59,244 nt of DNA from a virus (IMGVR_UViG_3300033067_002000:1-59244); one strand, 5' to 3'. Numbered from the stretch's first letter, positions 15,864 to 52,693 are shown. Program-made: numbers and translations. The notes: generated by a model from the sequence alone, not told the origin.

Positions 15864-16523
15864 ATGAGTACGCCCGAACAGATCAAAGAAGCCCAATGGC
15901 GCGGCGTCGACCGCGCCCTCACCCTCTACGGCCTCGACAAGACCGCCGGTGTTCTTGGCACGCTCGGCAGCGCGCTCGGTCGAGCGGGCACCGGCGCAGC
16001 CAAGGCGTACCAGCATGGCGGCGGCACCATGATGCAGAACGCTGCGAAGGGTGCCAAGGCCGGTTGGTCGGGCTTCCAGCGCGCAGGTGGCATGCAGGCT
16101 GCTGGCAAGGCCCTCGGCGGCGCGGCGCTCGCGGGTGGCGCGGCGTACGGAGCAGGCAAGGCGTTCGGGGCGGGACAGCAGTCGAACCAGCCGCCGAAGA
16201 TGGCGGGGATCAGCGACTTCGCGGCCATCGCGGCCCTCCCTGCTCTCGGCGGCGCGTTCAAGGGCGTTTCGCACAACCACGCAGAGCCTGTTCAAGGTGC
16301 CGCACGAGGTGTCGCAGGCGCGACGGGCGGGGCGCTGGCCGGCGGCGTGGCGGGCCTCGGCGGCAGCCTCGCGCTCTCGCACCTTTTGAAGCCGCAAGTG
16401 GGTGACAAGAGCCCCATCAAGGCATTGGCCGCGCTCGCGCCCCTCCTGCTCGGTACGGTCGGCGGCGGCGTCGGCGGCTACAACCTCGCGACCAAGAAGT
16501 ACGATCAGCCCCGTCAGGACTAA
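15864..16523 (+). CDS. Gly-zipper membrane-type protein with LYGLDKTA leader (putative virion cargo)
   Basis: AGGAG SD; GxxxG-rich hydrophobic helices; N-terminal module shared with 18570..19394. Confidence 0.75.
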
Positions 16524-16540
16524 ACAGAAGGACAACGATC

Positions 16541-16768
16541 ATGGATTTCGGACAGGCACTTCTCCTGCTCAAGCAGGGACATCGCGTGGCTCGGGATGGC
16601 TGGAACGGCAAGGGCATGTCCCTTGAACTGCAACGCCCGGACATGAACTCAAAGATGACGCTCCCGTACATCTTCATGACCACGGTGCAAGGTCAGCGTG
16701 TCCCGTGGCTTGCGTCGCAAACCGACATGCTCGCCGAAGACTGGGCCGTATTGCCCGCCATCGCGTAG
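16541..16768 (+). CDS. DUF2829 / Tad2-like anti-defence protein
   Basis: [21 protein letters not shown]...PYI...[15 protein letters not shown] signature. Confidence 0.88.
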
Positions 16769-16780
16769 TAAGGGGGTCTC

Positions 16781-18583
16781 GTGCCCGTCACCGTCGGATC
16801 CATCCTCATCAACTCCGTGATGCCGAAGGGCTACAAGCTCAACGGCCCCATCACCAATCGTGATCTTCATGACCATGTCGTCGGCTTGGCGAAGTCCGAC
16901 CCTGCACAGTATGTGCAGACGATCATGGCGTTGAAGCGGCGCGGCGACGAGATCGCGACGCTCGAAGGTGTGTCCGTCGGCCTTGAGGACATCCGGCCGG
17001 ATTACGCGGCGCGAGACAAGATCATGGTGCCTGCCATCAAGGCGCTCGCGGAAGCCAAGACTGAGAAGGCCCGCGAGAAAGTCATCATGGACACGCAGGC
17101 TGCGATCACCGCGCACACCAAGCAGCACCCAGGGTCCATGACCCACATGGCGCTGTCGGGCGCGCGCGGCAACATCGGGCAACTCATGAAGATCGTGGCT
17201 ACGCCGTTGGCGTCGGTGCACCCAAGGAAGGGCGTCAGCCCCGAGTTCATTGACCGCTCGTACTCCGAGGGCCTTACCCCGGCGCAGTACTGGCGCGCGG
17301 GACCCGAAGTGCGAGCCAACGAAGTGAAGGCCCGTATCTCGGTTTCTGAGCCTGGCGAGATGGCCAAGGTCCTCGTCAACAACATGATCGGCCAGGTCAT
17401 TACGTCGTCCGACTGCGGAACTTTCAACGGCGTAAAGACCAGCCTCGATGACGGCCACATCCTCGACCGGTACACCCAGGCGGATCACGGGCTGCCAAGG
17501 AATACCCTCGTCACTCCTCAACTGATTCAACAACTCAAGCACAAGGGCAACATCGCAACGTTGTTGGTGCGCTCTCCCATGACGTGCGCCGCGACGCAAG
17601 GCGTCTGCCAGCACTGCCAAGGGCTCAACGAGAAGGGGCACATGCACGCCGTCGGCATCACCGTCGGCGTTCGCGCGGCCCAAGCCATGGCAGAGCCGCT
17701 CACGCAGATGGCGCTCTCGTCGCGTCACGGCACGTTGATGGTCAAGGAGAAGGCGGAAGCCCCTTCAGGCTTGAAGGGTGTGCGGCAGCTCTTGGAGATC
17801 CCGAAGGCATTCAAGCACGAAGCCGTACTCGCACCGCATGCCGGTCAGGTCGGTCAGATCGAAAAGGCACCTCAAGGCGGCCACTACATCCACGTCGGTG
17901 CAAAGAAGCTGTACGCGGGCCCGAATCTCACGGTCACGGCGCACGAAGGGCAGACGGTCGAGCACGGCGACACGCTCACCGATGGTGTTCCGCACCCGGC
18001 CAAGATCGTGGCGGCCAAAGGCATCGGCAAGGGCCGCGCGCACTTCGTCGATGCGATGTACGCGCTGTACAAGGGCGAGGGTGTCGACCTCGACAAGCGG
18101 CACTTGGAGCTGCTCGCCAAGAGCGAGATCAATCACGTGCGGCTGCTTGAAAGTGACCCGGATCACCCCGAGCTTTTGAAGGGTGACACGATCAACTACA
18201 ACCAGTTTCGCGATGCGTACGTACATGACGTCGCACGTTTGCCCGTGGCAGATGCCATCGGCAAACGCCTGGGGGCCGAGGTTCTCCATCACACCGTCGG
18301 GACGTTGATCACACCGAACGTCGCGAAGGAGCTTCAGGGCCACGGCGTGCACGAAGTGAGCACGGCGCGACGCATGCCCCAGGTCGAGTTCGTCATGAAG
18401 CCCTTCGCGATGAACCCGCTTTTGGAGCGCGACTGGATGGCGCGTTTGTCGCACCGCTACCTGAAGAACACCTTGCAGGAGGCCGCGCAGTTCGGCGAGA
18501 CCTCTGACATCCATGGCACGCACGCAGTGCCAGCGTATGCTTTCGGAGCGGAATTGCGACACGGACCCAATGGAACCTTCTAG
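16781..18583 (+). CDS. rpoC: RNA polymerase beta' C-terminal half
   Basis: SGARGN, SYSEGL, DCGT, RSPMTC...GVCQHC Zn site, AAQAMAEPLTQMALSSRHG trigger loop, DKRHLE. Confidence 0.95.
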   Translation: MPVTVGSILINSVMPKGYKLNGPITNRDLHDHVVGLAKSDPAQYVQTIMALKRRGDEIATLEGVSVGLEDIRPDYAARDKIMVPAIKALAEAKTEKAREKVIMDTQAAITAHTKQHPGSMTHMALSGARGNIGQLMKIVATPLASVHPRKGVSPEFIDRSYSEGLTPAQYWRAGPEVRANEVKARISVSEPGEMAKVLVNNMIGQVITSSDCGTFNGVKTSLDDGHILDRYTQADHGLPRNTLVTPQLIQQLKHKGNIATLLVRSPMTCAATQGVCQHCQGLNEKGHMHAVGITVGVRAAQAMAEPLTQMALSSRHGTLMVKEKAEAPSGLKGVRQLLEIPKAFKHEAVLAPHAGQVGQIEKAPQGGHYIHVGAKKLYAGPNLTVTAHEGQTVEHGDTLTDGVPHPAKIVAAKGIGKGRAHFVDAMYALYKGEGVDLDKRHLELLAKSEINHVRLLESDPDHPELLKGDTINYNQFRDAYVHDVARLPVADAIGKRLGAEVLHHTVGTLITPNVAKELQGHGVHEVSTARRMPQVEFVMKPFAMNPLLERDWMARLSHRYLKNTLQEAAQFGETSDIHGTHAVPAYAFGAELRHGPNGTF

Positions 18584-19394
18584 CTTCGACATTGACGCGG
18601 TAAAGGCTCAGACCCGTGTGAAGGTCGCGACCCTCTATGGCCTCGACAAAAGCGCGTATGAAGCAGTCGGCCCTCTTGAAAGCGCCCTCGGTCGCGCGGG
18701 TCGCGCCGCATCCAAGGCGTATCAGAACGACAGTGGCCACATCCTTCAAAAGCTCCTGGCTGGGACGGGCGCAGGTTGGAAGGGCTTTCGCCGAGGTAAG
18801 GGCTTCAGCGCAGCGGGCAACGCGTTGTTCAGTGAACACGTCATTCACCCTTCGCAGCCGGGCGTCCTCAACAAGCTCAAGGCTTTCGGCAAGCACGTCG
18901 GGGAGTTCGGCCGCGAGATGGTGGCAGGCTCGCCGATCACCTTGGCGAAGCAATTGAAAGACCACCACATCGAAGCCGGGGGCGGCGTCGGCGGCGCTGT
19001 GCGCGCTGGCGGCAAATACGTCAAGGACTTCTACATGTCGCCGAAGTCGCCGATGTGGATGAAAGCCCTTTCGCTCGGAGTGCCAGCGATGGAACTTGGC
19101 GGCATCGCGCTCAAGGGTGATCCTGCGACACGCAAGGGCGATCTGGCGCACGCGATCTCCGGCCTCGTCGCCTCGCCCTTTACCGCGCGCTTGGGCTTGC
19201 CCGGTATGGCCCTGCAAGGCGCGGTTCAGTCAGGTGCGCGCGCTCTGGCGTCCAAGTTCGACCACAAGAAGCAACCGTACGATCCGAACTACGCACAGCT
19301 CGGACCACACGCTCGCAACGTCGTTCGCGCCACCGGCGGCCCTTTGAACGCCCTCAACGACATCGTGCCGCCTGATATAGACGCGGCCACCTAA
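18570..19394 (+). CDS. Gly-rich protein with LYGLDKSA leader (N-terminus paralogous to 15864)
   Basis: About 65-aa module shared at protein and DNA level; hydrophobic C-terminal helices. Confidence 0.7.
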   Translation: MEPSSFDIDAVKAQTRVKVATLYGLDKSAYEAVGPLESALGRAGRAASKAYQNDSGHILQKLLAGTGAGWKGFRRGKGFSAAGNALFSEHVIHPSQPGVLNKLKAFGKHVGEFGREMVAGSPITLAKQLKDHHIEAGGGVGGAVRAGGKYVKDFYMSPKSPMWMKALSLGVPAMELGGIALKGDPATRKGDLAHAISGLVASPFTARLGLPGMALQGAVQSGARALASKFDHKKQPYDPNYAQLGPHARNVVRATGGPLNALNDIVPPDIDAAT

Positions 19395-19427
19395 ACTACG
19401 CACAGAACACCAAGGAGCTACTCAGCG

Positions 19428-20861
19428 ATGGCAACCGTCTTCAATCAAACGTACCTCAAGGGCATCAGCGACATCTTCGTCGACGAGGGCTGGATGCCCG
19501 CGTGGGTGAACGAGAAGGTGGCTTGCGACGTGTTCGACAAGATCGCGAGCAAGCACAGGCTCCCGCAGTTCCTGGAGAGCCCGCTGCCCGACGACGTGAA
19601 CATCAAGATCGCCAACGACCTGCTCGCCGAAGGCCGCAAGAGCCCCGCGCTCGCATCGACCTACGCGCGCCAGAAGCAGGCGTCGCTCATGGATGCGAAC
19701 GAGCGCGCCGGCATGGTCGCCAGCTTCTACATGCAGAAGATGGCGGACGAAGCCAGCCTCAACAACACCGGCCCCAATACGGCCGAGAGCGCAGCGCAGA
19801 CGAACGCGAACGCCGCGCTCGACAACCGCAATCGCTCGCCGCGCGCGTACATCGTGCCGCGCGGACACACGGACCTTCCGCAAGGCGGCGTGACTGGCAA
19901 GCAGATGCCGCACCCCGAGGCACCCAAGGGTCCGGCGATCGACAACACGCTCACGCACCTCGACAAGCAGGCGCAGCTCGACCGCGCCTGGCAGTTCGTG
20001 CGCGGCGTGTCGCAACGCGGCTACGACCCTCGCGACCCCAAGGTCGTCCTCGCCGCGTGCGGCCTGGCGGAAGCCGGCAACACCGGCCTCGAAGCGATGA
20101 ACCTCGTGCTCTCGAACGCGAAGACCGCGAATGACATCGGCGCGCTGATCGAGCAAGTGCTGATGCAGCAGGACCAGGAGCACCACACACCGGACCCCGC
20201 GCTGATCGAAGCGTTGGAGCAGGCGCTTCAGAGTCAGATGGGCGGCGCACCCGAGGGCAGCATGCCTCAAGGCATGGGCGAAGGTGACCCCACCCCGGCG
20301 CCTGAGACGAACGCCCTGAAGGAAGAGCCCGCGCCGAAGATGGACGACGGGAAGGCCCCTGGCGAAAAGGCCGCCGGCGACTTCGTCGAGATGATGAAGG
20401 CGAAGAAGGACAAGCCGAAGGACGACAAGGACGAGAAGAAGACCAAGGAGGCCGCGCTGCTCGCGACCTTGAAGGCAGCGGCCGAAGGTTCGCTCAACTC
20501 GACGGGCGCCAACACGCCCGAGAGCGCCGCGAAGACCAACGCGAACGCGAAGCTCGACATGGAGAACCGCAAGCCGAACGAGTACCTCCCAGGTCGAGGC
20601 CAGACCGATCTGCCGGACGAAGGCCAGATCGGCGCGACGATGCCGGCTCCCAAGGCCCCCGACGTCGTGAACCCGGAGCTGACCAAGACCCTCACGGCGG
20701 CGGAGCGCGCGTACAATGAGCGCGTGAAGGCTGCCGGTGAGAAGTGGGGCAAGAAGTTGCCCGCAACGATGCCCACGGGCGAGAAGCGCGCGACAATCAT
20801 CGCGCTGGCCGGCATGCCCGAGCACCTGCACGGGCAGTACGTCGCAGAGCTCAGCAAGTAG
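19428..20861 (+). CDS. Putative head-internal protein with duplicated ~60-aa module and many KxA sites
   Basis: AAGGAG SD; strong codon bias; two copies of ExSLN.TG.NT.ESAA.TNANA.LD..NR.P..Y...RG.TDLP. Confidence 0.75.
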   Translation: MATVFNQTYLKGISDIFVDEGWMPAWVNEKVACDVFDKIASKHRLPQFLESPLPDDVNIKIANDLLAEGRKSPALASTYARQKQASLMDANERAGMVASFYMQKMADEASLNNTGPNTAESAAQTNANAALDNRNRSPRAYIVPRGHTDLPQGGVTGKQMPHPEAPKGPAIDNTLTHLDKQAQLDRAWQFVRGVSQRGYDPRDPKVVLAACGLAEAGNTGLEAMNLVLSNAKTANDIGALIEQVLMQQDQEHHTPDPALIEALEQALQSQMGGAPEGSMPQGMGEGDPTPAPETNALKEEPAPKMDDGKAPGEKAAGDFVEMMKAKKDKPKDDKDEKKTKEAALLATLKAAAEGSLNSTGANTPESAAKTNANAKLDMENRKPNEYLPGRGQTDLPDEGQIGATMPAPKAPDVVNPELTKTLTAAERAYNERVKAAGEKWGKKLPATMPTGEKRATIIALAGMPEHLHGQYVAELSK

Positions 20862-20883
20862 TACAGCCTCACGCTACTAACGG

Positions 20884-20919
20884 AGCGCCCGCCAGCCGTA
20901 TACTTCGGCGACGGGCGCT
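20884..20919. other. Intergenic hairpin with TATACTT loop
   Basis: AGCGCCCG/CGGGCGCT outer stem and GCCG/CGGC inner stem. Confidence 0.6.
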
Positions 20920-20943
20920 TCGCCTATTTAGGGAGCATTGCAG

Positions 20944-23529
20944 ATGTCGATGGATCCGTTCGCCCTTTCGCAGTCGCCGCGCACGCAAGGGTTTCAGCAG
21001 CCGCAGGGTCAGCAGGATGAGGACGACCTGTTCACACAGGGCTTCACTGAGCTCGCGCGCAACGCCTTTGCGAAGACGCACCCCGAGCTGCTCGACATGT
21101 TGCTCACGTTCCGTGTGCTCTCGACCGATGCGAGCGCGGGCGAAGGCCTCGGTGCGTTCATCTTGCGCGCGGCGAACGATGTGCTCTTCATCCCGGCCGT
21201 GATCGTCGACAACACGATCAAGCCCTTGGAGATGTTTTACACGCGCGTGAAAGACCGCTTCTACCCGCTCACAGCGGAGTGGTTGCAAACGGCCACAGCT
21301 GGCGTGTCCACGATGGGGGATGGTGTAGAGCCGCCCAAGACCCTGACGACGGACGTCGATCTGCGTAATCAGATGTTGCCGCCGACCACGGGCAGGTACT
21401 CCTACGCCGAGGACTACAGCGACCCTGCGTGGTCTCCGTTTACGGCGGCAAAGGTCGCAGAGGTATCGGATGGCACCCCGCCAGTCGTATTCCCCGAGCT
21501 GCTCTCGAAGATGGCCAACCACCAAAAGGTGGCGTTGGCTCGCTACTTCCAGCGGTGCGTCCCCTATTTCCGCAAGCTCGCGGAAGTTTACGGCGCAAAG
21601 ACTCTGATCGCGGCGCTTCAGCTCACCGAGGAAAAGACCGCCGCTGGCATCCACACCGAGATGCCGATCAAGCGCGACGTGTACCTCGTCACAGCCAGCA
21701 CCGATCGGCAAGAGATCAAGAAGGAGCTCGGGGTCGACGGCGCGAAAGAGGCCTACAAGGCCGTGCGCTACCACGGGTTCTACCTGAAGGATCGTCGCGA
21801 CGGGATGCGCGATTCCGTGGTGTCGATGCCAGAGGAGCTGGTGGGGCTTACGACTCCGGGCGCGCCCGGCGTGTACATGGTCTTCTTGGCCGACGGTACG
21901 GCCGAGAAGGCCCTGATCATCCCCGATCCGATTTGCGTGAGCCCCGCGCAGACAGACAATCAGCGCATGGCACGTGACGACCACAAGAGCTTGAAGGAAG
22001 ACGCCTACAAGGAAGGTCCCCGCTATCTCGTGCTCATGTCCGGGGGTCGTGGTGGTTGCCTGGATCATCTCGTGGTGGAGCCGGTTCTCTCGGCCTCGCA
22101 AGAAGAGCTCGAAGCGTTCATCGACGGGATCACCGAGAAGTCTCCGGAGCGCCGGGAGCGTGGCTGCCTGGTGTCGACAGCGAATTTGACCTTCCGTGCG
22201 ACCGACATCTTCTACGCCGAAGACGTGAACGTGTCCGACGACCAGGTCACGATCAACGCCGGCTACCGATCGAAGATCATCATGTCCCGCAAGCTCGGAG
22301 GCGGTCGTGTGATCAAGCCGACGGGGGCCTCTGCGTTGATCTTCCCGAACTCGTTCCGGTGGCTCAAGGTCACCGAGGACCTGCGCGACGGAGATCTGCT
22401 CGACAGTCAGCGCGCCGTGATGCAGGTGCTTGAGCAAGGTGTGAAGCGCAAGGGCCTCAAGAAGATCGAGGTCAAGACGGCTTCAAACGGGGCTTACGTC
22501 GTCGGACGGCATGGTTGGTCATCCGACAACAAGATCGAAGCCATCGTGAAGGTCGCGACGACGTACAACCTCGGGCTCAAGGACGCGGCGGAGATTGTCG
22601 AGATCACCCGTACAGGCGTACCCGTGCGCGCGTGGGCGGAGAAGACTGCCGCCGAAGGCGCGGCCCCTCAGCCGTCCGAAGAGCCCATGATGGACCCGAG
22701 CATGGTGGCACCGGCGCCGCCTCCGCCGACGGGCATGGAGCTCGCCATCCAGGAGAAGCTCACACAAGTGGCGGCGCAGCGCGCGGCGCTCGATCAGGCC
22801 GAGCAGATGCTCAACGAGATCCTCGGACGCAGCCAGGGCATCGACGCGGGCGGTGGCGCAATGGCGGCTCCGGGCGCAGCGGCAGCCATGGCAGGCGGCC
22901 CGTCGCAGGGTGTGATGGGACAGCCCGCGATGGCTCCCGTGCCGGGGTTGACTACGGATCCAGGCATGCAGCAGGGCGCAGTTCCGCCTGCGCAGGGGGC
23001 ACCGCAGGGCGCCCCGCCGCCTGCCGATCCAAGCATGCAACCGCAACCCGGAACGGTTTCGGGCATGCAACAGCCGCCGATGGATCCGAGCATGGGAAGG
23101 GACCCAGCGATGCAAGGAGATCCGAGCATGCAGCAGCCGGAACAGCCGCCCATGCCGGTCATGCCCAAGGACCCGAATCCAGCGCTGTTTGACCAACAGA
23201 TCAACCCGGCCTTCTTGGACCAGGCGGCCGAGCTCGACAACCAGGGTGTCTTCGACGCGACGGCTGTTGCGTCGCTCGCGAGCGTACGATCGGTTCGGGA
23301 CTTGCTCCAGAACTACACACCGACGCTCGATAACGCGCTTGATCGATTGGGGCGCACGCTGCTCCTTCTGTACGTGAAGAGCCGGATGATTCAAGATCAG
23401 ATCGGCGCCGAAGCGTACACCCGTATCGAGCAGACCATCCGTGACGTCTTCCGGATGCTTGGAGACGCGCTTTTGGAGCTCAACCAGTACGGTGATTCCT
23501 TGACCCCCAACGGAGCGCGCGCCGCATAA
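20944..23529 (+). CDS. Large putative head core/scaffold protein; Pro/Gln/Met-rich linker with DPSM repeats
   Basis: Long ORF with SD; KVA/KMA/KLA/KTA sites at apparent domain boundaries. Confidence 0.7.
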   Translation: MSMDPFALSQSPRTQGFQQPQGQQDEDDLFTQGFTELARNAFAKTHPELLDMLLTFRVLSTDASAGEGLGAFILRAANDVLFIPAVIVDNTIKPLEMFYTRVKDRFYPLTAEWLQTATAGVSTMGDGVEPPKTLTTDVDLRNQMLPPTTGRYSYAEDYSDPAWSPFTAAKVAEVSDGTPPVVFPELLSKMANHQKVALARYFQRCVPYFRKLAEVYGAKTLIAALQLTEEKTAAGIHTEMPIKRDVYLVTASTDRQEIKKELGVDGAKEAYKAVRYHGFYLKDRRDGMRDSVVSMPEELVGLTTPGAPGVYMVFLADGTAEKALIIPDPICVSPAQTDNQRMARDDHKSLKEDAYKEGPRYLVLMSGGRGGCLDHLVVEPVLSASQEELEAFIDGITEKSPERRERGCLVSTANLTFRATDIFYAEDVNVSDDQVTINAGYRSKIIMSRKLGGGRVIKPTGASALIFPNSFRWLKVTEDLRDGDLLDSQRAVMQVLEQGVKRKGLKKIEVKTASNGAYVVGRHGWSSDNKIEAIVKVATTYNLGLKDAAEIVEITRTGVPVRAWAEKTAAEGAAPQPSEEPMMDPSMVAPAPPPPTGMELAIQEKLTQVAAQRAALDQAEQMLNEILGRSQGIDAGGGAMAAPGAAAAMAGGPSQGVMGQPAMAPVPGLTTDPGMQQGAVPPAQGAPQGAPPPADPSMQPQPGTVSGMQQPPMDPSMGRDPAMQGDPSMQQPEQPPMPVMPKDPNPALFDQQINPAFLDQAAELDNQGVFDATAVASLASVRSVRDLLQNYTPTLDNALDRLGRTLLLLYVKSRMIQDQIGAEAYTRIEQTIRDVFRMLGDALLELNQYGDSLTPNGARAA

Positions 23530-23536
23530 TCAGCTG

Positions 23537-24253
23537 ATGAAGCCGCTACCCAACCCCTCGGCCCGTGCGGAGGCGGTTCGAGACCTTGTTCGAAACAAGG
23601 CCGAGGCGCCGACGGACCCGTTCGAGCGCGCCTTTTTTTACCTCGTAGAGAACACGCCCGTTGATGAGGACCCCGTAGCGGAGGCCGTTGCGACGGCCTA
23701 CGAGCTTACACAGGATCCCGTCGCCGTTCCTTTGTTGCGTGCGCTCATCCTGTTTGGCGCTGTCGGGGCTCAGGTTGATGAGGCCCTACAGCTTCCGCCC
23801 GGGACTTACGAAGCATTCAAGCACTTGTTCTTCGCGCGAGCCGCGTTCCCTACAGTGTTCGCTGTGCTTCGATTCGTTCGTGAGCAAGCCGAGGACGATC
23901 GAGAGCAGTACTACAACCTCGCATCAGAAGAAGGCCCTGAACGGCTGCTTGACCGGTTTCGCATCGGCCCCAAGCCGCTGCCTGCGCCAACACAAGTGCT
24001 CAACGAACTTCTTGCAGATGCGCACAGTCGATCGTTTGAGCATCGCGGACGTTCAATCACGAGCCGGGTCGCACAGGAGTCGCAACGATGGCAACGCCAC
24101 GCGGCTTCATTGGCGGATAGCCTCTTGAAGAACGAAGCGGCCAAACAGCAGCCCGGTAGTATCGTGGCATTGAAGCTCGCCCTCGTTTCAAAGGACGAGA
24201 CAAAGACTCCCGAGGAACTTGAATTGGATCCTCGCGCCATCATTCGTGAGTGA
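23537..24253 (+). CDS. Hypothetical protein
   Basis: Fills the gap in the operon; CATAAT-N6-ATG start. Confidence 0.7.
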   Translation: MKPLPNPSARAEAVRDLVRNKAEAPTDPFERAFFYLVENTPVDEDPVAEAVATAYELTQDPVAVPLLRALILFGAVGAQVDEALQLPPGTYEAFKHLFFARAAFPTVFAVLRFVREQAEDDREQYYNLASEEGPERLLDRFRIGPKPLPAPTQVLNELLADAHSRSFEHRGRSITSRVAQESQRWQRHAASLADSLLKNEAAKQQPGSIVALKLALVSKDETKTPEELELDPRAIIRE

Positions 24254-24280
24254 CAGCGGAACGCTAGACTAAAGGCACAC

Positions 24281-25138
24281 ATGACCTCTTGGGACAACAG
24301 CGACATCGATCGTGAAGCGAGTGAACTCGCTCGCGTGTTCTGGGCCGGCCAGGGTCAAAACGGAGCCAATCTCGGGGAGCTTGCCACCAAGCTCGCACGA
24401 GATAATGCGCTCAATGAAGAACAGATCCGGCGATTGTGTCGTGCCGCGAACGCCAAGGCGTTCGAACAGAAGCACGCCAGCATGACGGGTGACGTACGTT
24501 CCCCAACTTGGGAACTTGCGGACGAAGAGGGCGTGATCAGCCAACTCAACCAAGCGGCGGCGACGAGCTTCTCCAAGCAAGCGGCGGCGACGTACCCAGA
24601 GTTGGAGGACGAGCTGCGGCCTCAGTATCGACCCACCCTGCAAGCATCAACGCGTTCGAAAGTCGCGTCGATGGTCGCGGTCGCGGAGACGTACGCAGAG
24701 CCTACACGTGCTCCGTTGATCGAGTTCAATCGCTGTGCCCGGGAACTCGAAGAGCAACGAGCCGAGAAGATCGCGCACGACTTTGTATGGTCGGACGCGG
24801 TCAACCAGCTCATTCGAAATTCGCAGTTGATGAACTGGGATCACGACGCGTTTGAAAAGAACGCCGTGGCGCTCTTCGGTGGCGACGTGCTTCCCGAGCT
24901 CGATCTGTTGCGACGCCACACAGGCCGCCCGCAGCTGGCAACCGATGACACGCTGCACGACGTTACGGCGAAGCTGGCCGAACTCAGCGATGACTTGGTG
25001 GGGACTCCCGACGACAACTCCAAGCAGTTGGGTCTCGCTTTGACCGCACGGCGCGCGTACGAAGACGCAGGCACCAAGATCGCCCAGCTCACACGCAAGC
25101 ACGCGGAGCTGCGCAAGGTGCTCCGCCATGCGCGATAA
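24281..25138 (+). CDS. KxA-rich helical protein (putative head-internal)
   Basis: 9 of 12 Lys are K-x-A (manual count). Confidence 0.72.
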   Translation: MTSWDNSDIDREASELARVFWAGQGQNGANLGELATKLARDNALNEEQIRRLCRAANAKAFEQKHASMTGDVRSPTWELADEEGVISQLNQAAATSFSKQAAATYPELEDELRPQYRPTLQASTRSKVASMVAVAETYAEPTRAPLIEFNRCARELEEQRAEKIAHDFVWSDAVNQLIRNSQLMNWDHDAFEKNAVALFGGDVLPELDLLRRHTGRPQLATDDTLHDVTAKLAELSDDLVGTPDDNSKQLGLALTARRAYEDAGTKIAQLTRKHAELRKVLRHAR

Positions 25139-26417
25139 GAAGGCCACTCTCGCGGAGGTGGAAGACATCCTCCAGAAGAACGCAGGCTTCCTTCAGCAGG
25201 CGGGCGCCGCTGCACGTGGGCTTGCGTCTGGAGCCAAGCAGGTCGCCCACCAGCAAGGGGTGAAGCAAGAGCTCCAGGGCGCCGTCAACACGTTGCACCA
25301 CATGGGCGCTCTGCCTGCTCAGGTCAAGGGCAATGTTGTACAAGCACTGCCGCACGGTGTCGGCGTTGGTGAAAAGGGCCCTGGCGCCCTCTCACGCTTG
25401 AGTGAGAAGGTGAAGGGTGCGCTCGGCGGGGCGAAGCAAGAGTTCGCGCAGACTCGCGCAGCGGATCAGGCCGTCGATCGCTTCAAGCAGATTCAGCAAG
25501 GCGAAGCCGAAGTTGCGAAGGCAACGGCGACCGCACGCGCGCAGGGGCTCAATGTTCCGGATGCTCTGGCTGGTCAGAAGAACTACCGCGACATGACCCC
25601 GGAGCAGTACCTCCAGATGCACGGACACGTGGTACCTGCGCACCACCAGACACCGGCGCCTCGCCCTGCGCCGCAAGCAGCCCCGCAGGGTTCTGCCGCG
25701 TTGCCGCCGGGGCCTCAGATGCCGTACAGACAAGCGCTCGCGCCGCCTCCACAACAGACGTCGCCTGCACCTACAGCACGACCCCAGCAGAACTGGGCAC
25801 CGCGCAACGCGGGGGCTCTTGGGCTCGCCGGCGGTGCAGCACTTCTCGGAACCACAGCATGGCGCGGCAACCAGGCCGCGACGGAACAGGAGATGCGCAT
25901 GCGTGACTACCAGACCAATGCGCAAGGGAACATGGCGACACCGATGCCTTCGATGGCGGTTTACGCGAGCTACGAGAAGTTTGCGGCGCTCAAAGCACAG
26001 CCTCCGAAGTCGCCGTACACGCCGGTGTATCCGACGATGCAGGGCGCCCTTGCGAACAGCTTGGCCAGTCAGTTGGCTTCGAAGTTCATCGGCGACCCTA
26101 TCGACGCGATCCAGAAGGTGCTCAAGAAGAAGTTCTACGACGAGCCGAAGCACAGGGCGTCGTACGACCACGCCATGCTCGACCCAGACTTGATCGCGCT
26201 GCACAAGGACAAGCCGGACGTGTTGCCCATGGCGTTCAGCACGCTCAAGAAGTTCGCGCCGACAATGAGCCAAGACCCCGGGCTCACGCGAACGTGGCTT
26301 CGTCAGGTCGCACAGAGCGGCATGCACGATACAGGGCCTGACTTCGCCACCCTGCGTATCATCACCGAGGCTGAGAAGAACCTCGCCCAGGCGAAAGGCA
26401 ACGGCAACCCGTGGTAA
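25128..26417 (+). CDS. Hypothetical virion protein with QKNAG leader and one Gly-zipper helix
   Basis: Overlaps both neighbours; GALGLAGGAALLG segment. Confidence 0.7.
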   Translation: MRDKKATLAEVEDILQKNAGFLQQAGAAARGLASGAKQVAHQQGVKQELQGAVNTLHHMGALPAQVKGNVVQALPHGVGVGEKGPGALSRLSEKVKGALGGAKQEFAQTRAADQAVDRFKQIQQGEAEVAKATATARAQGLNVPDALAGQKNYRDMTPEQYLQMHGHVVPAHHQTPAPRPAPQAAPQGSAALPPGPQMPYRQALAPPPQQTSPAPTARPQQNWAPRNAGALGLAGGAALLGTTAWRGNQAATEQEMRMRDYQTNAQGNMATPMPSMAVYASYEKFAALKAQPPKSPYTPVYPTMQGALANSLASQLASKFIGDPIDAIQKVLKKKFYDEPKHRASYDHAMLDPDLIALHKDKPDVLPMAFSTLKKFAPTMSQDPGLTRTWLRQVAQSGMHDTGPDFATLRIITEAEKNLAQAKGNGNPW

Positions 26418-26638
26418 ACCCATCTCTGCTTGTCTCTCCGACGTTGCGCGCTGCGCTGCGTACGTACGGCTTCTCGAAGCTCTCGGCGCTCGTGCTGGGG
26501 GCACAGGGTGAGTACGCCCCCACCGACGGCTCGTACGAGGAGCTCGCCAAGTGCTTGGGGGCGAAGTTCGCCAGCAACCACATGAATCGTGCCGTCATCC
26601 TGGACGGTTTGACCGCGTTGGAGGAGCTCAATGTTTGA
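26411..26638 (+). CDS. Small protein with YGFSKLS leader-like motif
   Basis: GTG start overlapping the upstream gene end; 3' end carries the GGAGG SD of the next gene. Confidence 0.55.
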   Translation: MVNPSLLVSPTLRAALRTYGFSKLSALVLGAQGEYAPTDGSYEELAKCLGAKFASNHMNRAVILDGLTALEELNV

Positions 26639-27158
26639 CGCGGTAAAGGCGTGGGGCGCGATCAAGGAGGCGGCGCTCAGCGAAGGGGAAACCCTGGTTG
26701 AGGGCTTGTCTCACGTCGCGCTCGCGGCTTGGTCGCGCTGTGATGCCGGGACCAAGCTCAGCGCAGATCGACCGACGCGAGAAGCCTTCGCGGCCTCACT
26801 CGTCGGCGCGGCGATCGTGGATACTGCGCTCGACAAGCTCGCGGCTGAAGGTACGTACACGCCTGAAGAGCATCAATTCTTGAAGGAGTTGAATGCCGAA
26901 GCGGCGCTGACGGACTTGGCCGAGTTCACCAAGAACGCGTCGACCCTGGAAGCACTTCTGTCGACGATCAAGAAGAACCCAGCACTTGTGGGCGCAGGTG
27001 CCGGTGCGGTCGCGGGTGCTGGCTTTGGCGCGTACGCCGACGACAACAACCGGTTGCGCGGGGCTCTTCGCTTCGCGTTGCCAGGAGCGGCCACCGGCGC
27101 GCTTCTCGGTAACGGGGCGTCTCAACTCCACGCCGAGAGTCTCGCCAAGGCCAAGTAG
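26631..27158 (+). CDS. KxA protein with C-terminal Gly-zipper hairpin
   Basis: GGAGGAG SD; VGAGAGAVAGAGFG...GAATGALLG. Confidence 0.72.
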   Translation: MFDAVKAWGAIKEAALSEGETLVEGLSHVALAAWSRCDAGTKLSADRPTREAFAASLVGAAIVDTALDKLAAEGTYTPEEHQFLKELNAEAALTDLAEFTKNASTLEALLSTIKKNPALVGAGAGAVAGAGFGAYADDNNRLRGALRFALPGAATGALLGNGASQLHAESLAKAK

Positions 27159-27181
27159 CCCGCCTCTTACATTTTCCCCCG

Positions 27182-29020: not shown

Positions 29021-29051
29021 TTACCCTACTGCCCCAGGAGCCCAAAGACAG

Positions 29052-29645
29052 ATGAACACTCAATCGCTCAGCCTCGACACACTGCTCGGTCGCAACAAGA
29101 CGGCGGCGGCAGCGCCCACGCAGCAAGCGCCGACCCAACCGGCTTCAACCACTTCAAAGGTGGCGGCGGCAGTGGACGCGGCGACGGCGGCAGCCACCGC
29201 GAAGGTTGCGTCGACGGCGACGCCCGTGATGCCCCTGATCAACAAGCTCGCGTCGGATCTCGCCAAAAGCGATGCGGCCGATCTGGAGAAGGTTGCGGCC
29301 CGCTGCGGCTTGATCATGGCCGATACCTTCGTCGCGCAGATGGGCCACTACGAGAAGATCGCCGCCGAGGTGATGGCGAAGACCGCTGCGGAGCAGCCGG
29401 CCAACGGTGGCATCGATCCCGAGGTCCTCAAGTTCGCGAAGCTCGCGCTGGAGAACCCAGAGGCCGCGTACGCCCTGATCGAGAAGCGCGCCGCCGAGCG
29501 CCAGAATGCCGCGCCCGCCGACGCGATCAAGCAGGCCGAGGAAGAGGCCGCGCGCGAAACCGAGGAAGCGATCTTCAAGGGCGCCGCCGAGCACTACCTC
29601 CACGGCCAGGAAGTGGCCAAGCAGCTGATCGCGACAGCCAAGTGA
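29052..29645 (+). CDS. Scaffold-like Ala-rich protein
   Basis: 12 of 15 Lys are K-x-A; located between protease and capsid genes. Confidence 0.7.
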   Translation: MNTQSLSLDTLLGRNKTAAAAPTQQAPTQPASTTSKVAAAVDAATAAATAKVASTATPVMPLINKLASDLAKSDAADLEKVAARCGLIMADTFVAQMGHYEKIAAEVMAKTAAEQPANGGIDPEVLKFAKLALENPEAAYALIEKRAAERQNAAPADAIKQAEEEAARETEEAIFKGAAEHYLHGQEVAKQLIATAK

Positions 29646-37819: not shown

Positions 37820-37821
37820 GC

Positions 37822-44672: not shown

Positions 44673-44673
44673 G

Positions 44674-47326: not shown

Positions 47327-47374
47327 CAGTACCTCCTATGAGCCCTTTGAAGCGCTCATAGCTTGTACCGTGAA

Positions 47375-47628: not shown

Positions 47629-48009
47629 ATGCCCACGATCAAGCTCACAGGCAACGCCCTCGTACAACTGATGGACGGCGCCACGCCGCAACCGGTTCCG
47701 GTCGCTTTTGATGCGGTCTACACCGAAAAGCTGCTCGCGGGGATCAACTACACCTCCGCCCAAACCAATCTGGCGATCGGTCCAGGCTCGGTGACCAACC
47801 CGCGCATCGTGATGGTCTTCATCTACGAAGGTACGATGTCGCTCTCATGGGGCGTCGACGGGGCCAATCCGACAGTGCTGTCGGCCAATCCGACGCCTCC
47901 GCCGACGGACCGGCCCGTGCTGGTCATGTTCCGCTACAACGCGCCCGCAAGCACGCTCTACTTGACGACGACGGGTCCAGTGCGCGGCGAGATCTGGCTC
48001 TTCGAGTAA
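47629..48009 (+). CDS. Small beta-rich protein, possibly structural
   Basis: Clean ORF with coding-like codon usage. Confidence 0.6.
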   Translation: MPTIKLTGNALVQLMDGATPQPVPVAFDAVYTEKLLAGINYTSAQTNLAIGPGSVTNPRIVMVFIYEGTMSLSWGVDGANPTVLSANPTPPPTDRPVLVMFRYNAPASTLYLTTTGPVRGEIWLFE

Positions 48010-48572
48010 GTCGCGGTCTCCCAGCACTCACGGCACAGCGGCTTGTACGTCTCCTCCGCCCCTACCAAAATCTGCTGCACGCCTTTCGACACTGCGTGGC
48101 GAAAGGTCATGGTGCCCTTCTCGCTCTTGCACTCGCTACAGATCGCCGTGAGCTTGGTGACCGAGTCTGCGTGGGCCATGAGCGCGGGCATGGGCCCAAA
48201 CGGACGGCCCATGTAATCCCGGTCGAGCCCGGCCGCGAGCACGGAGATTCCGCGCCGAAGCAGTTCCTGCACTTCCCCCACCACATTGTCACCAAAGAAC
48301 TGTGCTTCTTCGAGGGCGACAAAGCGCGTGTGAGGTCGTGCCCGCTTGGCGAAGGGCTCCCCCGGCGGCGTAATACACACCACGCCGTGGTAGCCCATCT
48401 TCGTTTCCGCGTGCGACGTGAGCTCCTCCAGCGATCGGCGCGTGTCAGTCGACGGACGGAACACCTGCACGCCTTGACCCGCGTGGTAAGCTCGGCGCAC
48501 ACGCGCGATAATCGTCTCCGTCTTGCCGGCCCACATAGGGCCGCAGACGACGTCGAAGCGACCCATGGTCAT
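47958..48572 (-). CDS. tdk: Thymidine kinase (type II)
   Basis: GPMWAGKT, EEAQFF, GLDRDYMGRPF, CSEC...YKPLCREC. Confidence 0.93.
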   Translation of the reverse strand: MTMGRFDVVCGPMWAGKTETIIARVRRAYHAGQGVQVFRPSTDTRRSLEELTSHAETKMGYHGVVCITPPGEPFAKRARPHTRFVALEEAQFFGDNVVGEVQELLRRGISVLAAGLDRDYMGRPFGPMPALMAHADSVTKLTAICSECKSEKGTMTFRHAVSKGVQQILVGAEETYKPLCRECWETATYSKSQISPRTGPVVVK

Positions 48573-49051: not shown

Positions 49052-49066
49052 GCGCTCCTCCTGGCT

Positions 49067-49462
49067 TCAACCCTGGAGGGAGTTGTATATGCCAGGTTCG
49101 GGCATGAGGGAAGACACCGCACGATCGTCTTGAGCATTGGTAATGAATGCCTGATTCACGTCCGACTTGATCCGCTGCTCTTCCATCTTCGGATCAGTGG
49201 CGCGCGCTTTCACAGGGTCGCCCGAGAGCATATCCAAGAGCGCGAGGCCGCCTTCGGCAAGCTTGCCTCCAGCCATCTGCTCCTGAAGGATCGGATGCAC
49301 GACCGACAGTGCCGGGTACCGCTGGCGATCCTTCTCAGCCTGCTCGGCCTTGTAGCGCTCGTACGACGCCATCATCGCGGGGAACCCCTGCGACGCGAAG
49401 AACATCGAGCCGAGCTTGTAGCGCTCCAGGACACGACGAACACCAGGGTTCCTGGGATTCAT
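49067..49462 (-). CDS. Small protein with GVRRVLERYKLG leader
   Basis: TGATG coupling; leader resembles the KxA/G motif family. Confidence 0.65.
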   Translation of the reverse strand: MNPRNPGVRRVLERYKLGSMFFASQGFPAMMASYERYKAEQAEKDRQRYPALSVVHPILQEQMAGGKLAEGGLALLDMLSGDPVKARATDPKMEEQRIKSDVNQAFITNAQDDRAVSSLMPEPGIYNSLQG

Positions 49463-50106
49463 CAGAACGACGCCGTACCTTCCAAGGGCGCTTGCGCTTG
49501 GCCGCTCTCTTCGCCCACCGATGCCGCAGATGAATCAACAGCTCGCAGCGCGGCGCTCAAGTGCTGGTCGATCGCACCTTCATCGGGGATGGTGTTCTTG
49601 TCGGCGGTGTTGAACCCGAGGATGTTGCCTCGAATGAGCTTCTCGATCTCGGCGGCCTTGAGGCCCGAGAGCTTGTAGCGGGCCAAGACCTCGCGGGTAC
49701 CTTCAGGGATCGACGCTTCCTTGCTCACGTAACGCTCCTTCTTCTTGGGCTCGAACTTCCCGAGCGCGCCCTTGAGGTGATCCATGTCGCGGAAAATTCT
49801 TCGCGCGTGCACTTCCGGTCCGTAGAGCTTGTAGATGATCTCGCGATCCCGGTCCGACACGCCGACGAGGAACTTGGTCTCGTCGAGACTCTTGAGGTCT
49901 GACGTGAGCTTCTGGAAGCACTCGTAGTGCCCGTTGGGGTCGTCGCCGACGAAGGCATCGAGACCCTCGTTGTCCTCACCCTTCAGGCGCGGGAAGTATC
50001 CGTAGTCGCACGGGTACTGAAACGACTTGCCGCCGGGCCACTTCTTCACGTAGCCCTTCGGCCGATCGATGATGAAGCGGGTGTCTTGGAAGATCTTTGT
50101 TGCCAT
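49462..50106 (-). CDS. Inorganic-pyrophosphatase-like (phage InPase) domain protein with KxA-delimited C-terminal module
   Basis: DRPKG...YPCDYGY...GEDNEGLDAFVG...DETK; then SKEAS and RYKLS. Confidence 0.75.
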   Translation of the reverse strand: MATKIFQDTRFIIDRPKGYVKKWPGGKSFQYPCDYGYFPRLKGEDNEGLDAFVGDDPNGHYECFQKLTSDLKSLDETKFLVGVSDRDREIIYKLYGPEVHARRIFRDMDHLKGALGKFEPKKKERYVSKEASIPEGTREVLARYKLSGLKAAEIEKLIRGNILGFNTADKNTIPDEGAIDQHLSAALRAVDSSAASVGEESGQAQAPLEGTASF

Positions 50107-50131
50107 GGACGCCAGCCTCTATGTTATGGGG

Positions 50132-51319
50132 ATGACTCGTGCTGAACGCGCTGCCGCTGCTTTCATCAAGCAGGCGGCACAACAAGTCCCGATCGAGGAA
50201 GAGGAGTCCCACACCGGACGCAACCTCGCCATGGTAGGTGTCGCCACTGCGCCCATGCTTGGTGCGATCGGACAGAAGCCGGTTCTCCACGATCCGCACA
50301 TGAACCCGAACGTCAATCGGTTCAAGAACCTGCGCGAGCTCGAACGCCAGGCGCGACCCGGCGACGTGCTGCTCACCAGCAAGCCCAAGGGCAGCTTCTG
50401 GAAGTCGTGGATCAAGCCACTCTCGGGGTCGGAGTTCTACCACGCGCAACCTATCACCGGACGGCGCAAGGGCCTCGGCACCACCATGACCGCCGGGCAG
50501 TACAACGAGCCTGACTGGCACGAAGGAACGCGCGCGCAAGGCATCAAGGACATGGCGAGCCACGCGGGCACCATCGGCACCGAGATGCGCGGCAACGCGT
50601 ACGATGATGTGCTCTTGCTGCGTCCGAAAGCAGGACTTACCCCGGAGCAGAAGAAGAGATTCGTCGAAGATGCGATGCTTCGCTCACGCGAGAAGTACGA
50701 CACGCCGAAAGGCGTCACCGCGTGGCTCAAGGACATCTTCGTCCCCAAGATGAAGGGACTGGAGAACGTCCCGAACGCTCCGCTCTGCGAAGGCGGCGTG
50801 TGCTCGACCGTGAGTGCCATGGCGCACAACGCCGCCGGCGTGCCCCTCCAGGTGGGCAAGGCCGCCAAGGACATCATGCCGGGGGACTACCTCCGCTCGG
50901 AGGCGTTCAAGCCTGTTGGCGTGCACATGAAGAACGACTACACACACTCTTCGCAGCTTCGCCGCGCGATGCCCTACCTGGCGCGCGGAGCCCTCGGGCT
51001 TGCGGGCGCGGGCGCGATCTACGCAGGCACCAAGGACCCCGCGTCGCTGGCCGTCGTCCCCGGTGTCGCAGCGGGTGGCGCTCTCGGGGCGCGGCTCGGT
51101 CAGAAGCTCTTCGGCCACAAGGAGCTCGCTCCCGGGCTCATGAACGCGTGGATCCAGTACGGCGACAAGGGTCCCAAGGGCAAGGCCCGCCTGATCAAGC
51201 AGCTGCTTCAAGGTCGCGTGCCGGGGATGGCGCTCGGCGGGCTCGCGAGCTACCTGGCTGCGCAGAAGCTGCGTGACAAACTGCGAGGGCAAGCGCCCGA
51301 CGAAGCTCCGCTGCGCTAA
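50132..51319 (+). CDS. Permuted papain-like amidase (YiiX/YebB-like NlpC/P60) with KQAA leader and Gly-zipper helices
   Basis: RPGDVLL, FYHA, LLRP, KYD, VCST with His before Cys; TATGTT-N6-ATG start. Confidence 0.72.
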   Translation: MTRAERAAAAFIKQAAQQVPIEEEESHTGRNLAMVGVATAPMLGAIGQKPVLHDPHMNPNVNRFKNLRELERQARPGDVLLTSKPKGSFWKSWIKPLSGSEFYHAQPITGRRKGLGTTMTAGQYNEPDWHEGTRAQGIKDMASHAGTIGTEMRGNAYDDVLLLRPKAGLTPEQKKRFVEDAMLRSREKYDTPKGVTAWLKDIFVPKMKGLENVPNAPLCEGGVCSTVSAMAHNAAGVPLQVGKAAKDIMPGDYLRSEAFKPVGVHMKNDYTHSSQLRRAMPYLARGALGLAGAGAIYAGTKDPASLAVVPGVAAGGALGARLGQKLFGHKELAPGLMNAWIQYGDKGPKGKARLIKQLLQGRVPGMALGGLASYLAAQKLRDKLRGQAPDEAPLR

Positions 51320-51674
51320 GAGTGGAACGCCTTTCAGCCCGCACCGCCGCCCTCTCGTACTTGTTCTTGCAGTACCCCACGCGCCAGGACTCCCATAGGT
51401 AGTCGAGCCACATCCTCACGCCGCCGAGCACGTACTGATCGACGTGCTTGAGCTCGTGTCGCACGTTCGCGAGCGTCACCTCGGCGTAAGAGCGGAAGTA
51501 CATCTCCAGGCCGCGCGCGAACGCGAGGCAGTCAGAGAACTCACGTTCCCGAACGTGCTCATTCTTCGCCACGTACATAGGGACACCGCGTACGTGGCCG
51601 ATGAGCTTGAAGTCGCCGCGACGCCGCATCCACTTGTTCGAGATTCGAGAGACTACTTCGCTGATGCCGTCCAT
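51195..51674 (-). CDS. HExxH zinc-metallopeptidase-like protein (DUF4157-like)
   Basis: RHELKHVDQY...GYCKNKYERAA; TACTTT-N6-ATG start. Confidence 0.65.
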   Translation of the reverse strand: MDGISEVVSRISNKWMRRRGDFKLIGHVRGVPMYVAKNEHVREREFSDCLAFARGLEMYFRSYAEVTLANVRHELKHVDQYVLGGVRMWLDYLWESWRVGYCKNKYERAAVRAERRSTLSAAELRRALALAVCHAASAQPGSSRARRAPSPARDLEAAA

Positions 51675-51712
51675 GTTTGAAAAGTACCCTACGGTACTAA
51701 TCTTGTCTAGGA

Positions 51713-52204
51713 TCAGGCGTAGCGGCTTCGCGTTGTCGACAAGTACCCCGAGCTGAGTCCGCCCCACGCTGCGCGCATGTTTCGCTCGGTCTTGATCGCG
51801 CGCACTGCTGTCTTGAACTCTTCGCGCATCCAACCCGCCCACTGCTGATAGAGGGCCTGCTTGTCGTCGATGCCGATGGGCTGCACGTTGCCATCCTGCG
51901 TGGTTGCTTGGTTGCGCAGCTGACGCATGCCTTCCGACGTGAGCAAGTGCGCAGCAGCACCGTACAGAAGCACCACCTCAGGGACGCCGTCTTGCGGAAG
52001 GTTCGTGATTGGCGTGGTCGCGTTGTACCAAGCCAACGCCAAGCCGATCGCTGCGTCCACGTCGTCGTCCGAGAACTCGACATTGTCGAGCAGGATGTTG
52101 ATGACCCCTGTGTTCGGTACGTCGCCCGGATAGTCGCGCATGAAGCGGCGGATCGCATCGCGTCGCGGGATCGAGCTGGTGACGGGAAGGCCGATAACAG
52201 GCAT
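51713..52204 (-). CDS. Putative head-tail adaptor/neck protein
   Basis: RRFMRD...EFSDDDV...LLYGAAAHLL...QLRNQ...DG helical adaptor-like pattern; GAGGAG SD. Confidence 0.55.
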   Translation of the reverse strand: MPVIGLPVTSSIPRRDAIRRFMRDYPGDVPNTGVINILLDNVEFSDDDVDAAIGLALAWYNATTPITNLPQDGVPEVVLLYGAAAHLLTSEGMRQLRNQATTQDGNVQPIGIDDKQALYQQWAGWMREEFKTAVRAIKTERNMRAAWGGLSSGYLSTTRSRYA

Positions 52205-52207
52205 TGG

Positions 52208-52693
52208 TTACTCCTCGTACATCGGGATGGACTCGGGCTTCGGTGCCATCAGGTGCTTCGCGCCTGCGTAGAGCGCTCCGCCCGTTGCGGCGCCCGCGAG
52301 CGCCCTGAGCGCCACACCCTTGAAGAGGGCGTTACGCGAGGCAGTCGCCGCGCTCATTAAGGGCTTGGCGGCTCGCAACGCTTGATCCTGCGCATGCCCC
52401 GCAAGACGCCGATCCCGGAGCCACGTTTCCATCAGATCCGCAACCCCCGCCAGCTTATCGATCTCCATGTTCCGGACATTGAGCTTTGGCTTCTTCAGCT
52501 TGGCGTCGACCAGCGCATCCAACACCGCAGCTTGCTTGGCCCCTGGCGTCGCCGAGGGTGGGGGTGCACTGGATGTCGGCGCAACGCTGGGTGCAGGCGG
52601 AGCCGCCGGGGCTCCGGGCCCGCAGCGTGGCAACGTCGGGCGCCCTGCGGGGGACGTCGGGTAGCCTGCGACCTCATCAGAAAGCTTCAACAT
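52208..52693 (-). CDS. KxA protein with C-terminal Gly-zipper helix
   Basis: KLS, KQAA and DKLAG sites; ALAGAATGGALYAG. Confidence 0.65.
   Translation of the reverse strand: MLKLSDEVAGYPTSPAGRPTLPRCGPGAPAAPPAPSVAPTSSAPPPSATPGAKQAAVLDALVDAKLKKPKLNVRNMEIDKLAGVADLMETWLRDRRLAGHAQDQALRAAKPLMSAATASRNALFKGVALRALAGAATGGALYAGAKHLMAPKPESIPMYEE

Follow-up and report, generated by a model that had tools for sequence, protein, structure and literature searches.

The 59,244-bp window analysed here (IMGVR_UViG_3300033067_002000, a linear IMG/VR viral contig of ∼62% G+C rated 34% complete) is a 59-kb piece of a phage of roughly 175–190 kb whose closest cultured relative is Salmonella phage Arash, a phage with a multisubunit RNA polymerase in its virions. 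The short motif hydrophobic-x-K-x-A, after which Ser, Ala or Gly often stands, recurs in the proteins of its head module; it occurs there far beyond chance, is conserved across the clade, and is probably the recognition and cleavage consensus of the clade's prohead serine protease. An initial annotation of the window had described a short helical leader ending in K-x-A/S/G in front of ten dispersed cargo genes, and had proposed a modular tag for packaging and injection. The K-x-A/S/G element is real, clade-conserved and concentrated in head-assembly proteins; it is not one tag on ten unrelated cargos, and the leaders would instead be propeptides that the protease removes. Genes are referred to below by their lowest coordinate (Table 1).

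The head module was delimited by a rule fixed in advance, as the genes between that for the C-terminal part of the RNA polymerase (RNAP) beta' subunit and that for the major capsid protein, and raw counts of motifs of the form hydrophobic.X.Z were compared inside and outside it, with 311–385 motifs tested per genome. The K/A motif ranks first in every genome tested, namely the window, four relatives (G001, G002, G003 and G005), Arash and Vibrio phage D69. The window has 30 sites in the module and 24 outside (p = 7.8e-8, rank 1 of 311); the corresponding counts are 27 and 45 in G001 (p = 1.3e-8), 29 and 50 in G002 (p = 1.4e-7), 30 and 61 in G003 (p = 2.1e-12), and 42 and 52 in G005 (p = 2.9e-15). 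When residues were shuffled within each protein, 7.1–11.4 sites were expected in the modules versus the 27–42 observed (z 5.5–9.2), none of 1000 shuffles reached the observed number, and the genome outside the module carried the motif at chance (z 0.1–1.2). For the window, shuffling predicts 8.7 sites in the module and 23.1 outside. No enrichment of that order is seen for the related helix-type motifs hydrophobic.E.A,.R.A and.K.L.

The same concentration is seen in further members of the clade. Arash has 30 sites in the 2279 amino acids (aa) of gp218–gp224 versus 55 in 41,728 aa elsewhere (p = 1.3e-17, rank 1 of 385, 140 of 181 kb covered), and D69 has 36 in 2632 aa versus 26 in 12,903 aa (p = 3.4e-13, rank 1 of 311, 49 of 187 kb covered). 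In each of 16 further metagenomic loci for which both flanks were present, the motif is denser before the capsid gene than after it; the densities are 9.5 sites per 1000 aa upstream and 1.4 downstream, with open reading frames picked crudely, longest first, on one strand. Conservation was assessed in 87 orthologue groups from the window and the four relatives by asking, for 400 motifs of the form hydrophobic-x-X-x-Z, which sites are kept in at least 80% of members. The K/A motif has 17 such sites, 14 of them in head-module groups that hold 15.7% of the alignment columns (p = 2.3e-9), and the next motif has five; the module of this test was delimited after the sites had been seen, and the enrichment was therefore repeated under the rule fixed in advance. 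Around the motif there is a preference for Glu at −1, Leu or Val at +1, Ala, Ser or Phe at +3, and Glu, Ala or Asp at +4 relative to the Lys, and the residue that follows the Ala is very often Ser in Arash and D69.

Among head-module proteins, 36 of 71 have a site in their first 40 residues versus 22.6 expected for uniform placement. Most sites are nevertheless internal, and a cleavage consensus thus fits better than a leader. The clearest instance is the Ala-rich product of the 29052 gene, for which position and composition suggest a scaffold role; it contains eight sites and had no family match in the library scans. Its counterparts in density among Arash proteins are gp223, with eight sites in 260 aa, and gp220, with nine. 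The three small genes that follow the scaffold-like gene each encode one site in the first 20 residues and one more, and their conserved sites read LRKxA[FY], LRK[LI]A and [LR][TSE]K[IV]A in 4–5 orthologues each. The product of 23537–24253 has no site; that of the 20944 gene, which has three, is weakly similar to the Arash virion protein gp218. In the portal-like protein there is one conserved site (aa 42–46), and the 2379-aa RNAP fusion carries four, which is background density.

The candidate protease is the product of the 27182 gene. It has a weak PHROG match (18299, head maturation protease, E = 1.7e-5) and is the homologue of Arash gp222, a virion protein. Searched by sequence against solved structures, the protease alignment yielded no meaningful match (best E 0.64). 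An AlphaFold2 model of aa 1–262 (mean predicted local distance difference test score, pLDDT, 73.5) finds 55 matches among viral models at E ≤ 1e-3; prohead serine protease, HK97 family prohead protease, COG3740 and XkdF are among the names of these entries, and a protease fold is thereby supported. His128, His129, Ser180 and His206 are invariant in 22 protease sequences. Two copies of the motif bracket the catalytic domain. The N-terminal one, MEKTA, is conserved in 5/5 orthologues, reads [FIL][TS]KxAS at the same position of the wider protease family, and lies within a segment of pLDDT < 50 (aa 25–41). The C-terminal one, LQKVA, has Lys249, Val250 and Ala251 invariant in the 22 sequences and lies in a second segment of pLDDT < 50 (aa 239–262). 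In the model, then, both sites sit in low-confidence segments on either side of the fold that are probably flexible. The order of protease, scaffold-like gene, small genes and capsid gene is conserved in the relatives and in Arash.

The presence of the motif in head-assembly proteins, its multiple copies in the scaffold-like protein, its bracketing of the protease domain and its N-terminal copies in internal proteins match the pattern of T4 and phiKZ-type phages, and this leads us to the cleavage consensus. During head assembly the protease would cut itself at both sites that flank its catalytic domain, chop the eight-site scaffold-like protein into pieces able to leave the shell, and trim short N-terminal propeptides off internal head proteins; these propeptides would be the leaders at 15864, 18570, 25128, 26411 and 29642. 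In a few families a longer helix precedes the site (R..L..YG[LF]xK) and may bring the protein into the prohead, as the capsid-targeting sequence of T4 does. We lean towards a cut after the Ala, because K+2 is only Ala, Ser or Gly in the 15864 family, K+3 is usually small and K+1 is usually Leu or Val; a cut after the Lys is also possible (compare the P3–P1 pattern of T4).

Several observations weigh against this assignment. Throughout the clade we infer cleavage itself, the bond cut and the targeting role, and the putative catalytic triad is read from the invariant residues. Foldseek comparison of the protease model with solved structures gave weak matches (T4 gp21, E 0.23 and template modelling score 0.45; human cytomegalovirus protease, E 0.21), and the 27182 product matched no Pfam family at E ≤ 0.01 and no NCBIfam family at E ≤ 0.1. 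The major capsid protein contains no motif site. The motif of the 26411 protein is placed within a helix (residues 10–31) rather than an extended loop in a low-confidence model (pLDDT 60). Mass spectrometry of Arash virions, as given in Table 2 of that study, recovered the motif-rich proteins gp221, gp223 and gp224 at 100% coverage and gp222 at 85% (PMC10585845), which is not what departure of propeptides and scaffold fragments from the head would predict. The table lists coverage percentages rather than individual peptides, and with primase, ligases and ribonucleotide reductase among the 116 proteins of the preparation (PMC10585845), unassembled precursors may have been present.

The Arash coverage and the 26411 helix model lend weight to an alternative in which the motif is not cleaved at all, and serves as a recurring helical contact during assembly, through which scaffold-like and internal proteins associate with one another, with the shell or with the portal, and which is kept in the mature virion. 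The flanking preferences (Glu at −1, Leu or Val at +1, and Glu, Ala or Asp at +4) also resemble one face of an amphipathic helix. We nonetheless consider such a contact motif unlikely: it leaves unexplained why two invariant copies bracket a catalytic domain in flexible segments, and why K+2 is limited to small residues (Ala, Ala, Ser, Ser and Gly in the 15864 family), and the helix-type motifs hydrophobic.E.A,.R.A and.K.L lack comparable enrichment. Chance combined with paralogy would explain the motif as a K-x-[AGS] pattern that is common in N-termini, with similar leaders contributed by two duplicated genes. The 15864 and 18570 genes are indeed paralogues, and the loose pattern is common, as its number outside the window module shows. 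The first rank among 311–385 motifs in seven phages, the absence of any shuffle among 1000 that reached the observed count, and the agreement of 16/16 further loci make this account very improbable overall, and for the head module pure chance or paralogy is excluded.

A six-frame search located all ten peptide strings that the initial annotation had taken for one shared leader, at or near the places assigned to them. They form four groups, the first of which comprises seven families whose orthologues conserve K-x-A/S/G. In the 15864 family the helix and YGL[DEN]K are kept in 5/5 orthologues, with Ala, Ala, Ser, Ser and Gly at K+2. The 18570 gene is present in 16/16 related loci; its G[LF] core is found in 12/14 sequences and K-x-A in only 5/14. 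These two genes are paralogues by profile comparison (hhalign 98%, 135 columns). Gly20 and Lys23 of the 26411 protein are invariant in 10/10 sequences, with Ala at K+2 in nine and Ser in the window. K[ND]A of the 25128 protein is kept in 6/6 orthologues with an aligned N-terminus, and LRKxA[FY] of the 29642 protein in 5/5. In the Gly-rich 37816 protein, K-x-A is kept in 5/5 orthologues, and the residue at −2 is not hydrophobic. The seventh family, 49067, contributes only an N-terminal helix that aligns with the tail helix of the InPase protein (hhalign E 0.007); the window protein has neither K-x-A nor hydrophobic-x-K-x-A, and its two orthologues carry IRKVA.

The other three groups hold one string each. 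The InPase string GTREVLARYKLS is not a leader: it is internal, with 139 residues between it and the preceding stop and 67 between it and the following one, and opens a C-terminal tail; a VSKEA site (49714–49728) lies between domain and tail, and the tail helix is conserved in three orthologues. The Lys of IEKTG (14978–14992) in the ferritin-like protein is absent from 11/11 aligned orthologues. For the 50069 protein, which was said to contain a papain-like domain, scans of Pfam, NCBIfam and PHROG gave no significant family match, and no orthologue was found among the four relatives.

Some features of these proteins deserve mention on their own account. The ferritin-like protein has an N-terminal MF.FL..L peptide that is kept in its six nearest orthologues, followed by a variable linker (a PAPPEQ repeat in the window) and the ferritin domain. 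Such an arrangement is reminiscent of a cargo preceded by a targeting peptide, although the peptide is not that of the K-x-A leaders. The last ∼75 residues (aa 44–119) of the 15493 protein resemble the InPase C-terminal tail (hhalign 29%, E 6e-4), and both open with an R..VL..Y.L helix; from this similarity the shared tail may be a common docking domain. FYGVKK of the 15493 gene was considered as the shared core and rejected, since profile alignment puts the shared helix at aa 44–58. The InPase tail (aa ∼137–146) also shares G.TREVLA with the C-terminal region of the protease (aa ∼305–316); the string is not kept in protease orthologues and may be due to chance or local exchange.

A profile of the 15864/18570 helix recovered 14 proteins at an independent E value below 1 and no reversed decoys in five proteomes. 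Eight of the 14 belong to the source families, and the six outside them include internal and C-terminal matches; within the window, the profile scores only the two source genes. It thus finds mostly its own families and does not define a single shared leader. One common leader profile was dropped, because family-specific profiles of 26411, 25128 and 29642 missed the other families at significance. Other pairs of leader families align in register on the Tyr-Gly core, with hhalign E values of only 0.007–0.1. What recurs is thus a helix ("RYGLxK") in a handful of families, two of them paralogous, and not one leader on ten cargos.

The proposal of the initial annotation in its full form, one modular capsid-targeting leader on unrelated cargo genes scattered over both strands that would direct packaging, maturation and injection, still has some evidence in its favour. 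Outside the head modules of the five genomes, 47 of 586 proteins carry a site among their first 40 aa versus 30.5 ± 5.4 expected, a number that 0/500 shuffles reached, although this control ignores N-terminal composition bias; several of these N-terminal sites recur in orthologues, and the six long-helix profile hits beyond the two source families came with no decoy hit. Pyrophosphatase is among the proteins detected in Arash virions; the most-detected one there is the RNAP beta subunit, and beta' and a sigma factor accompany it (PMC10585845). The lineage thus packages a polymerase, a trait it shares with phiKZ-like phages. A segment resembling InPase lies inside the RNAP gene itself in relative G005 (contig 71667–77645), where aa 963–1052 of the fusion match the window InPase at 40% identity over 90 aa (E 1.8e-9); if real, this insert would tie the pyrophosphatase functionally to the packaged polymerase. 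Against a general leader stand the internal position of the InPase motif, the unconserved ferritin site, the lack of K-x-A in the 49067 protein and of 50069 orthologues in the four relatives, the chance-level total motif density outside the head module, and the E values of only 0.007–0.1 reached by pairs of leader families other than 15864/18570. Taken as a whole, we regard it as improbable. A further reading is a two-part N-terminal tag in a widespread, almost uncultured clade of ∼180-kb phages that would inject their own RNAP: an amphipathic helix, R..L..YG[LF], would load the protein, and the K-x-A|S after it would serve for release through an assemblin-like cut after Ala. Its cargo in the head would be Gly-rich membrane-active proteins together with helpers of the polymerase, the pyrophosphatase for one. 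We regard this reading as speculative and unlikely. The cleavage consensus of the prohead protease remains the reading we prefer.

The gene map rests on family scans and on comparison with Arash. A DNA-level search of the window, head region included, against deposited phages returned no match. The RNAP is common to 16 related contigs at 58–73% identity with conserved gene order, a relative of the capsid protein is encoded by 103 IMG/VR contigs, and the cultured members of the clade are Arash and three Vibrio phages. Complete genomes are available for two relatives and measure 173 and 187 kb. G002 has 49% G+C versus 60–66% in G001, G003 and G005 and 62% in the window, with RNAPs 66–73% identical, and this wide spread suggests that the hosts are probably quite different. 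The block 18570–30501 holds 13 genes without family names, save for the weak head-maturation match of the protease. Tail and baseplate genes lie downstream of the capsid gene and are followed by minus-strand metabolic genes (thymidine kinase and InPase); NCBIfam and further PHROG scans added nothing except the baseplate-hub match of the 39152 gene. The capsid N-terminus is conserved from its start Met in 80 relatives. Its string AMLKAG (aa 20–25) was considered as a motif and rejected, since relatives read FVRKLE.G there and no site is present.

Around the structural block the KorB, PD-(D/E)XK, SNF2 and thymidine kinase genes are ordinary replication and nucleotide-metabolism genes. A LAGLIDADG-type intein interrupts the RNAP fusion at about aa 2018–2238; the fusion gene encodes 1500–2430 aa in relatives, so that insert content varies. 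The Tad2-like gene is placed between the two RNAP genes.

Table 1. Features of the window, in order of position; motif coordinates are given in parentheses.
Feature	Position	Strand	Details
KorB-domain protein	3–1178	−	
PD-(D/E)XK nuclease	1920–2732	−	
SNF2-family helicase	3396–5498	−	
Portal-like protein	5540–7291	+	29% identical to gp204, the annotated portal protein of Arash, in 566 aa
Fused RNAP beta and beta' N-part	7834–14973	+	2379 aa; Pfam Rpb2, Rpb1, LAGLIDADG_3, Intein_splicing
Ferritin-like protein	14936–15496	+	Pfam Ferritin, E 6.5e-7
119-aa protein	15493–15852	+	Sites FGKTA and LAKYA
Gly-rich protein	15864–16523	+	28-aa helical leader ending LDKTA (15933–15947)
Tad2-like protein	16541–16768	+	Thoeris anti-defence 2, DUF2829; 75 aa; Pfam E 2.9e-26
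RNAP beta' C-part	16781–18583	+	Pfam Rpb1 domains 4 and 5; no motif site
Protein downstream of RNAP beta' C-part	18570–19394	+	Leader ending LDKSA (18642–18656)
Head-module protein	19428–20861	+	Three sites; some sites of this and the next two proteins are conserved in orthologues
Head-module protein	20944–23529	+	Three sites
Head-module protein	24281–25138	+	Two sites
429-aa protein	25128–26417	+	N-terminal leader ending LQKNA (25170–25184), two more sites
75-aa protein	26411–26638	+	N-terminal LRxxLRxYGFSKLS, site at 26471–26485
175-aa protein	26631–27158	+	Two sites conserved 5/5; Pfam Gly-zipper_YMGG E 6.9e-4, below curated cut-off
Candidate prohead serine protease	27182–29020	+	Catalytic domain at about aa 40–245, 360-aa C-terminal region
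Motif MEKTA of protease, aa 33–37	27278–27292	+	N-terminal to catalytic domain
Motif LQKVA of protease, aa 247–251	27920–27934	+	C-terminal end of protease domain
Scaffold-like, Ala-rich protein	29052–29645	+	197 aa, between protease and capsid gene; two sites conserved 5/5
Small gene	29642–29830	+	
Small gene	29831–30112	+	
Small gene	30109–30501	+	
169-aa gene	30537–31046		
Major capsid protein	31087–32010	+	37% identity to Arash gp226, annotated major capsid protein
Gly-rich protein outside head module	37816–38337	+	N-terminal DKMA (37831–37845)
Tail hub/puncturing-device protein, gp5-like	39152–40591	+	T4 gp5 C-terminal trimerisation domain, Pfam E 2e-5; PHROG baseplate hub, E 1.7e-8
Thymidine kinase	47958–48572	−	
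131-aa protein	49067–49462	−	N-terminal VLERYKLG (49409–49423)
InPase-like pyrophosphatase	49462–50106	−	Pfam InPase at aa 13–87; C-terminal tail opens VLARYKLS (49666–49680)
416-aa protein	50069–51319	+	FIKQA (50162–50176)

To our knowledge, the cleavage motifs established for phage head proteases derive from mass spectrometry of a small number of model phages, namely T4, phiKZ, 201phi2-1 and SPN3US. The candidate consensus proposed here comes from comparative sequence alone, in a clade known almost wholly from metagenomes, and within the literature covered, our searches, which included Lys- or Ala-type prohead cleavage consensus sequences, found no description of the motif; the word 'protease' does not occur in the Arash paper (PMC10585845). 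If the consensus is confirmed, it becomes possible to predict, in all genomes of the clade, where mature proteins end and which head proteins are processed and probably injected, and a packaging tag could be designed for a Salmonella phage that can be grown. Trypsin-based virion proteomes would also need to be read again, since the peptides that define the site are hidden when a Lys precedes the cut by two residues. Were the two-part tag true, it would amount to a portable packaging signal, and the injected proteins of any member could be read from its sequence.

The herpesvirus assemblin, which shares the superfold of phage prohead proteases, has release and maturation sites of the Ala|Ser type and a self-cleavage site at the C-terminal end of its catalytic domain. 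Ala-Ser is frequent at K+2/K+3 in Arash, D69 and the wider protease alignment; the order of the upstream residues differs, and we take the likeness as a lead. The cargo-loading peptides of encapsulins are short, load enzymes that include ferritin-like proteins into a shell of HK97 fold and are not cleaved. The G-[LF]-x-K core found here is of a similar flavour, whereas the ferritin-like gene of the window lacks the conserved motif. The HK97 capsid protein is cut after a Lys.

The closer parallels lie with large phages that process many head proteins. In phiKZ, 201phi2-1 and SPN3US, as here, RNAP and many internal proteins are packaged, and a short three-position motif (S/A/G-X-E or A-X-E) is repeated in head proteins. 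The SPN3US protease gp245 is described as cutting after A-X-E at 14 sites in nine proteins, removing N-terminal propeptides of 20–254 aa that may hold several copies of the motif, together with its own C-terminal propeptide (PMC10052503). N-terminal propeptides of about 20 to a few hundred residues, several motif copies per propeptide and a protease that cuts itself where its catalytic domain ends are described for these phages (PMC10052503) and would recur in the window. The motif here differs in being basic, with a central Lys and an Ala two residues on, where theirs ends in Glu; in a capsid protein with neither a site nor a long propeptide; and in a protease model that matches prohead proteases of the HK97 and XkdF type, in a phage with no detectable DNA similarity to deposited ones.

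The analogy with T4 drawn by the initial annotation, a targeting propeptide that ends in a protease site, proved apt. In T4, propeptides of 10–19 aa are described as directing internal proteins to the core before they are themselves removed (PMC9026906). As in the internal proteins IPI–III of T4, where gp21 cleaves at L/I-X-E, short N-terminal peptides here would end in the motif of the head protease ahead of unrelated mature proteins. The scaffold core protein of T4 is cleaved at numerous sites (PMC9026906), as the scaffold-like protein would be here. The two systems have no sequence similarity, and the longer helix is confined here to a few families, two of them paralogous. The kind of system is known; the motif, the clade and the way of discovery are, as far as our searches reach, new.

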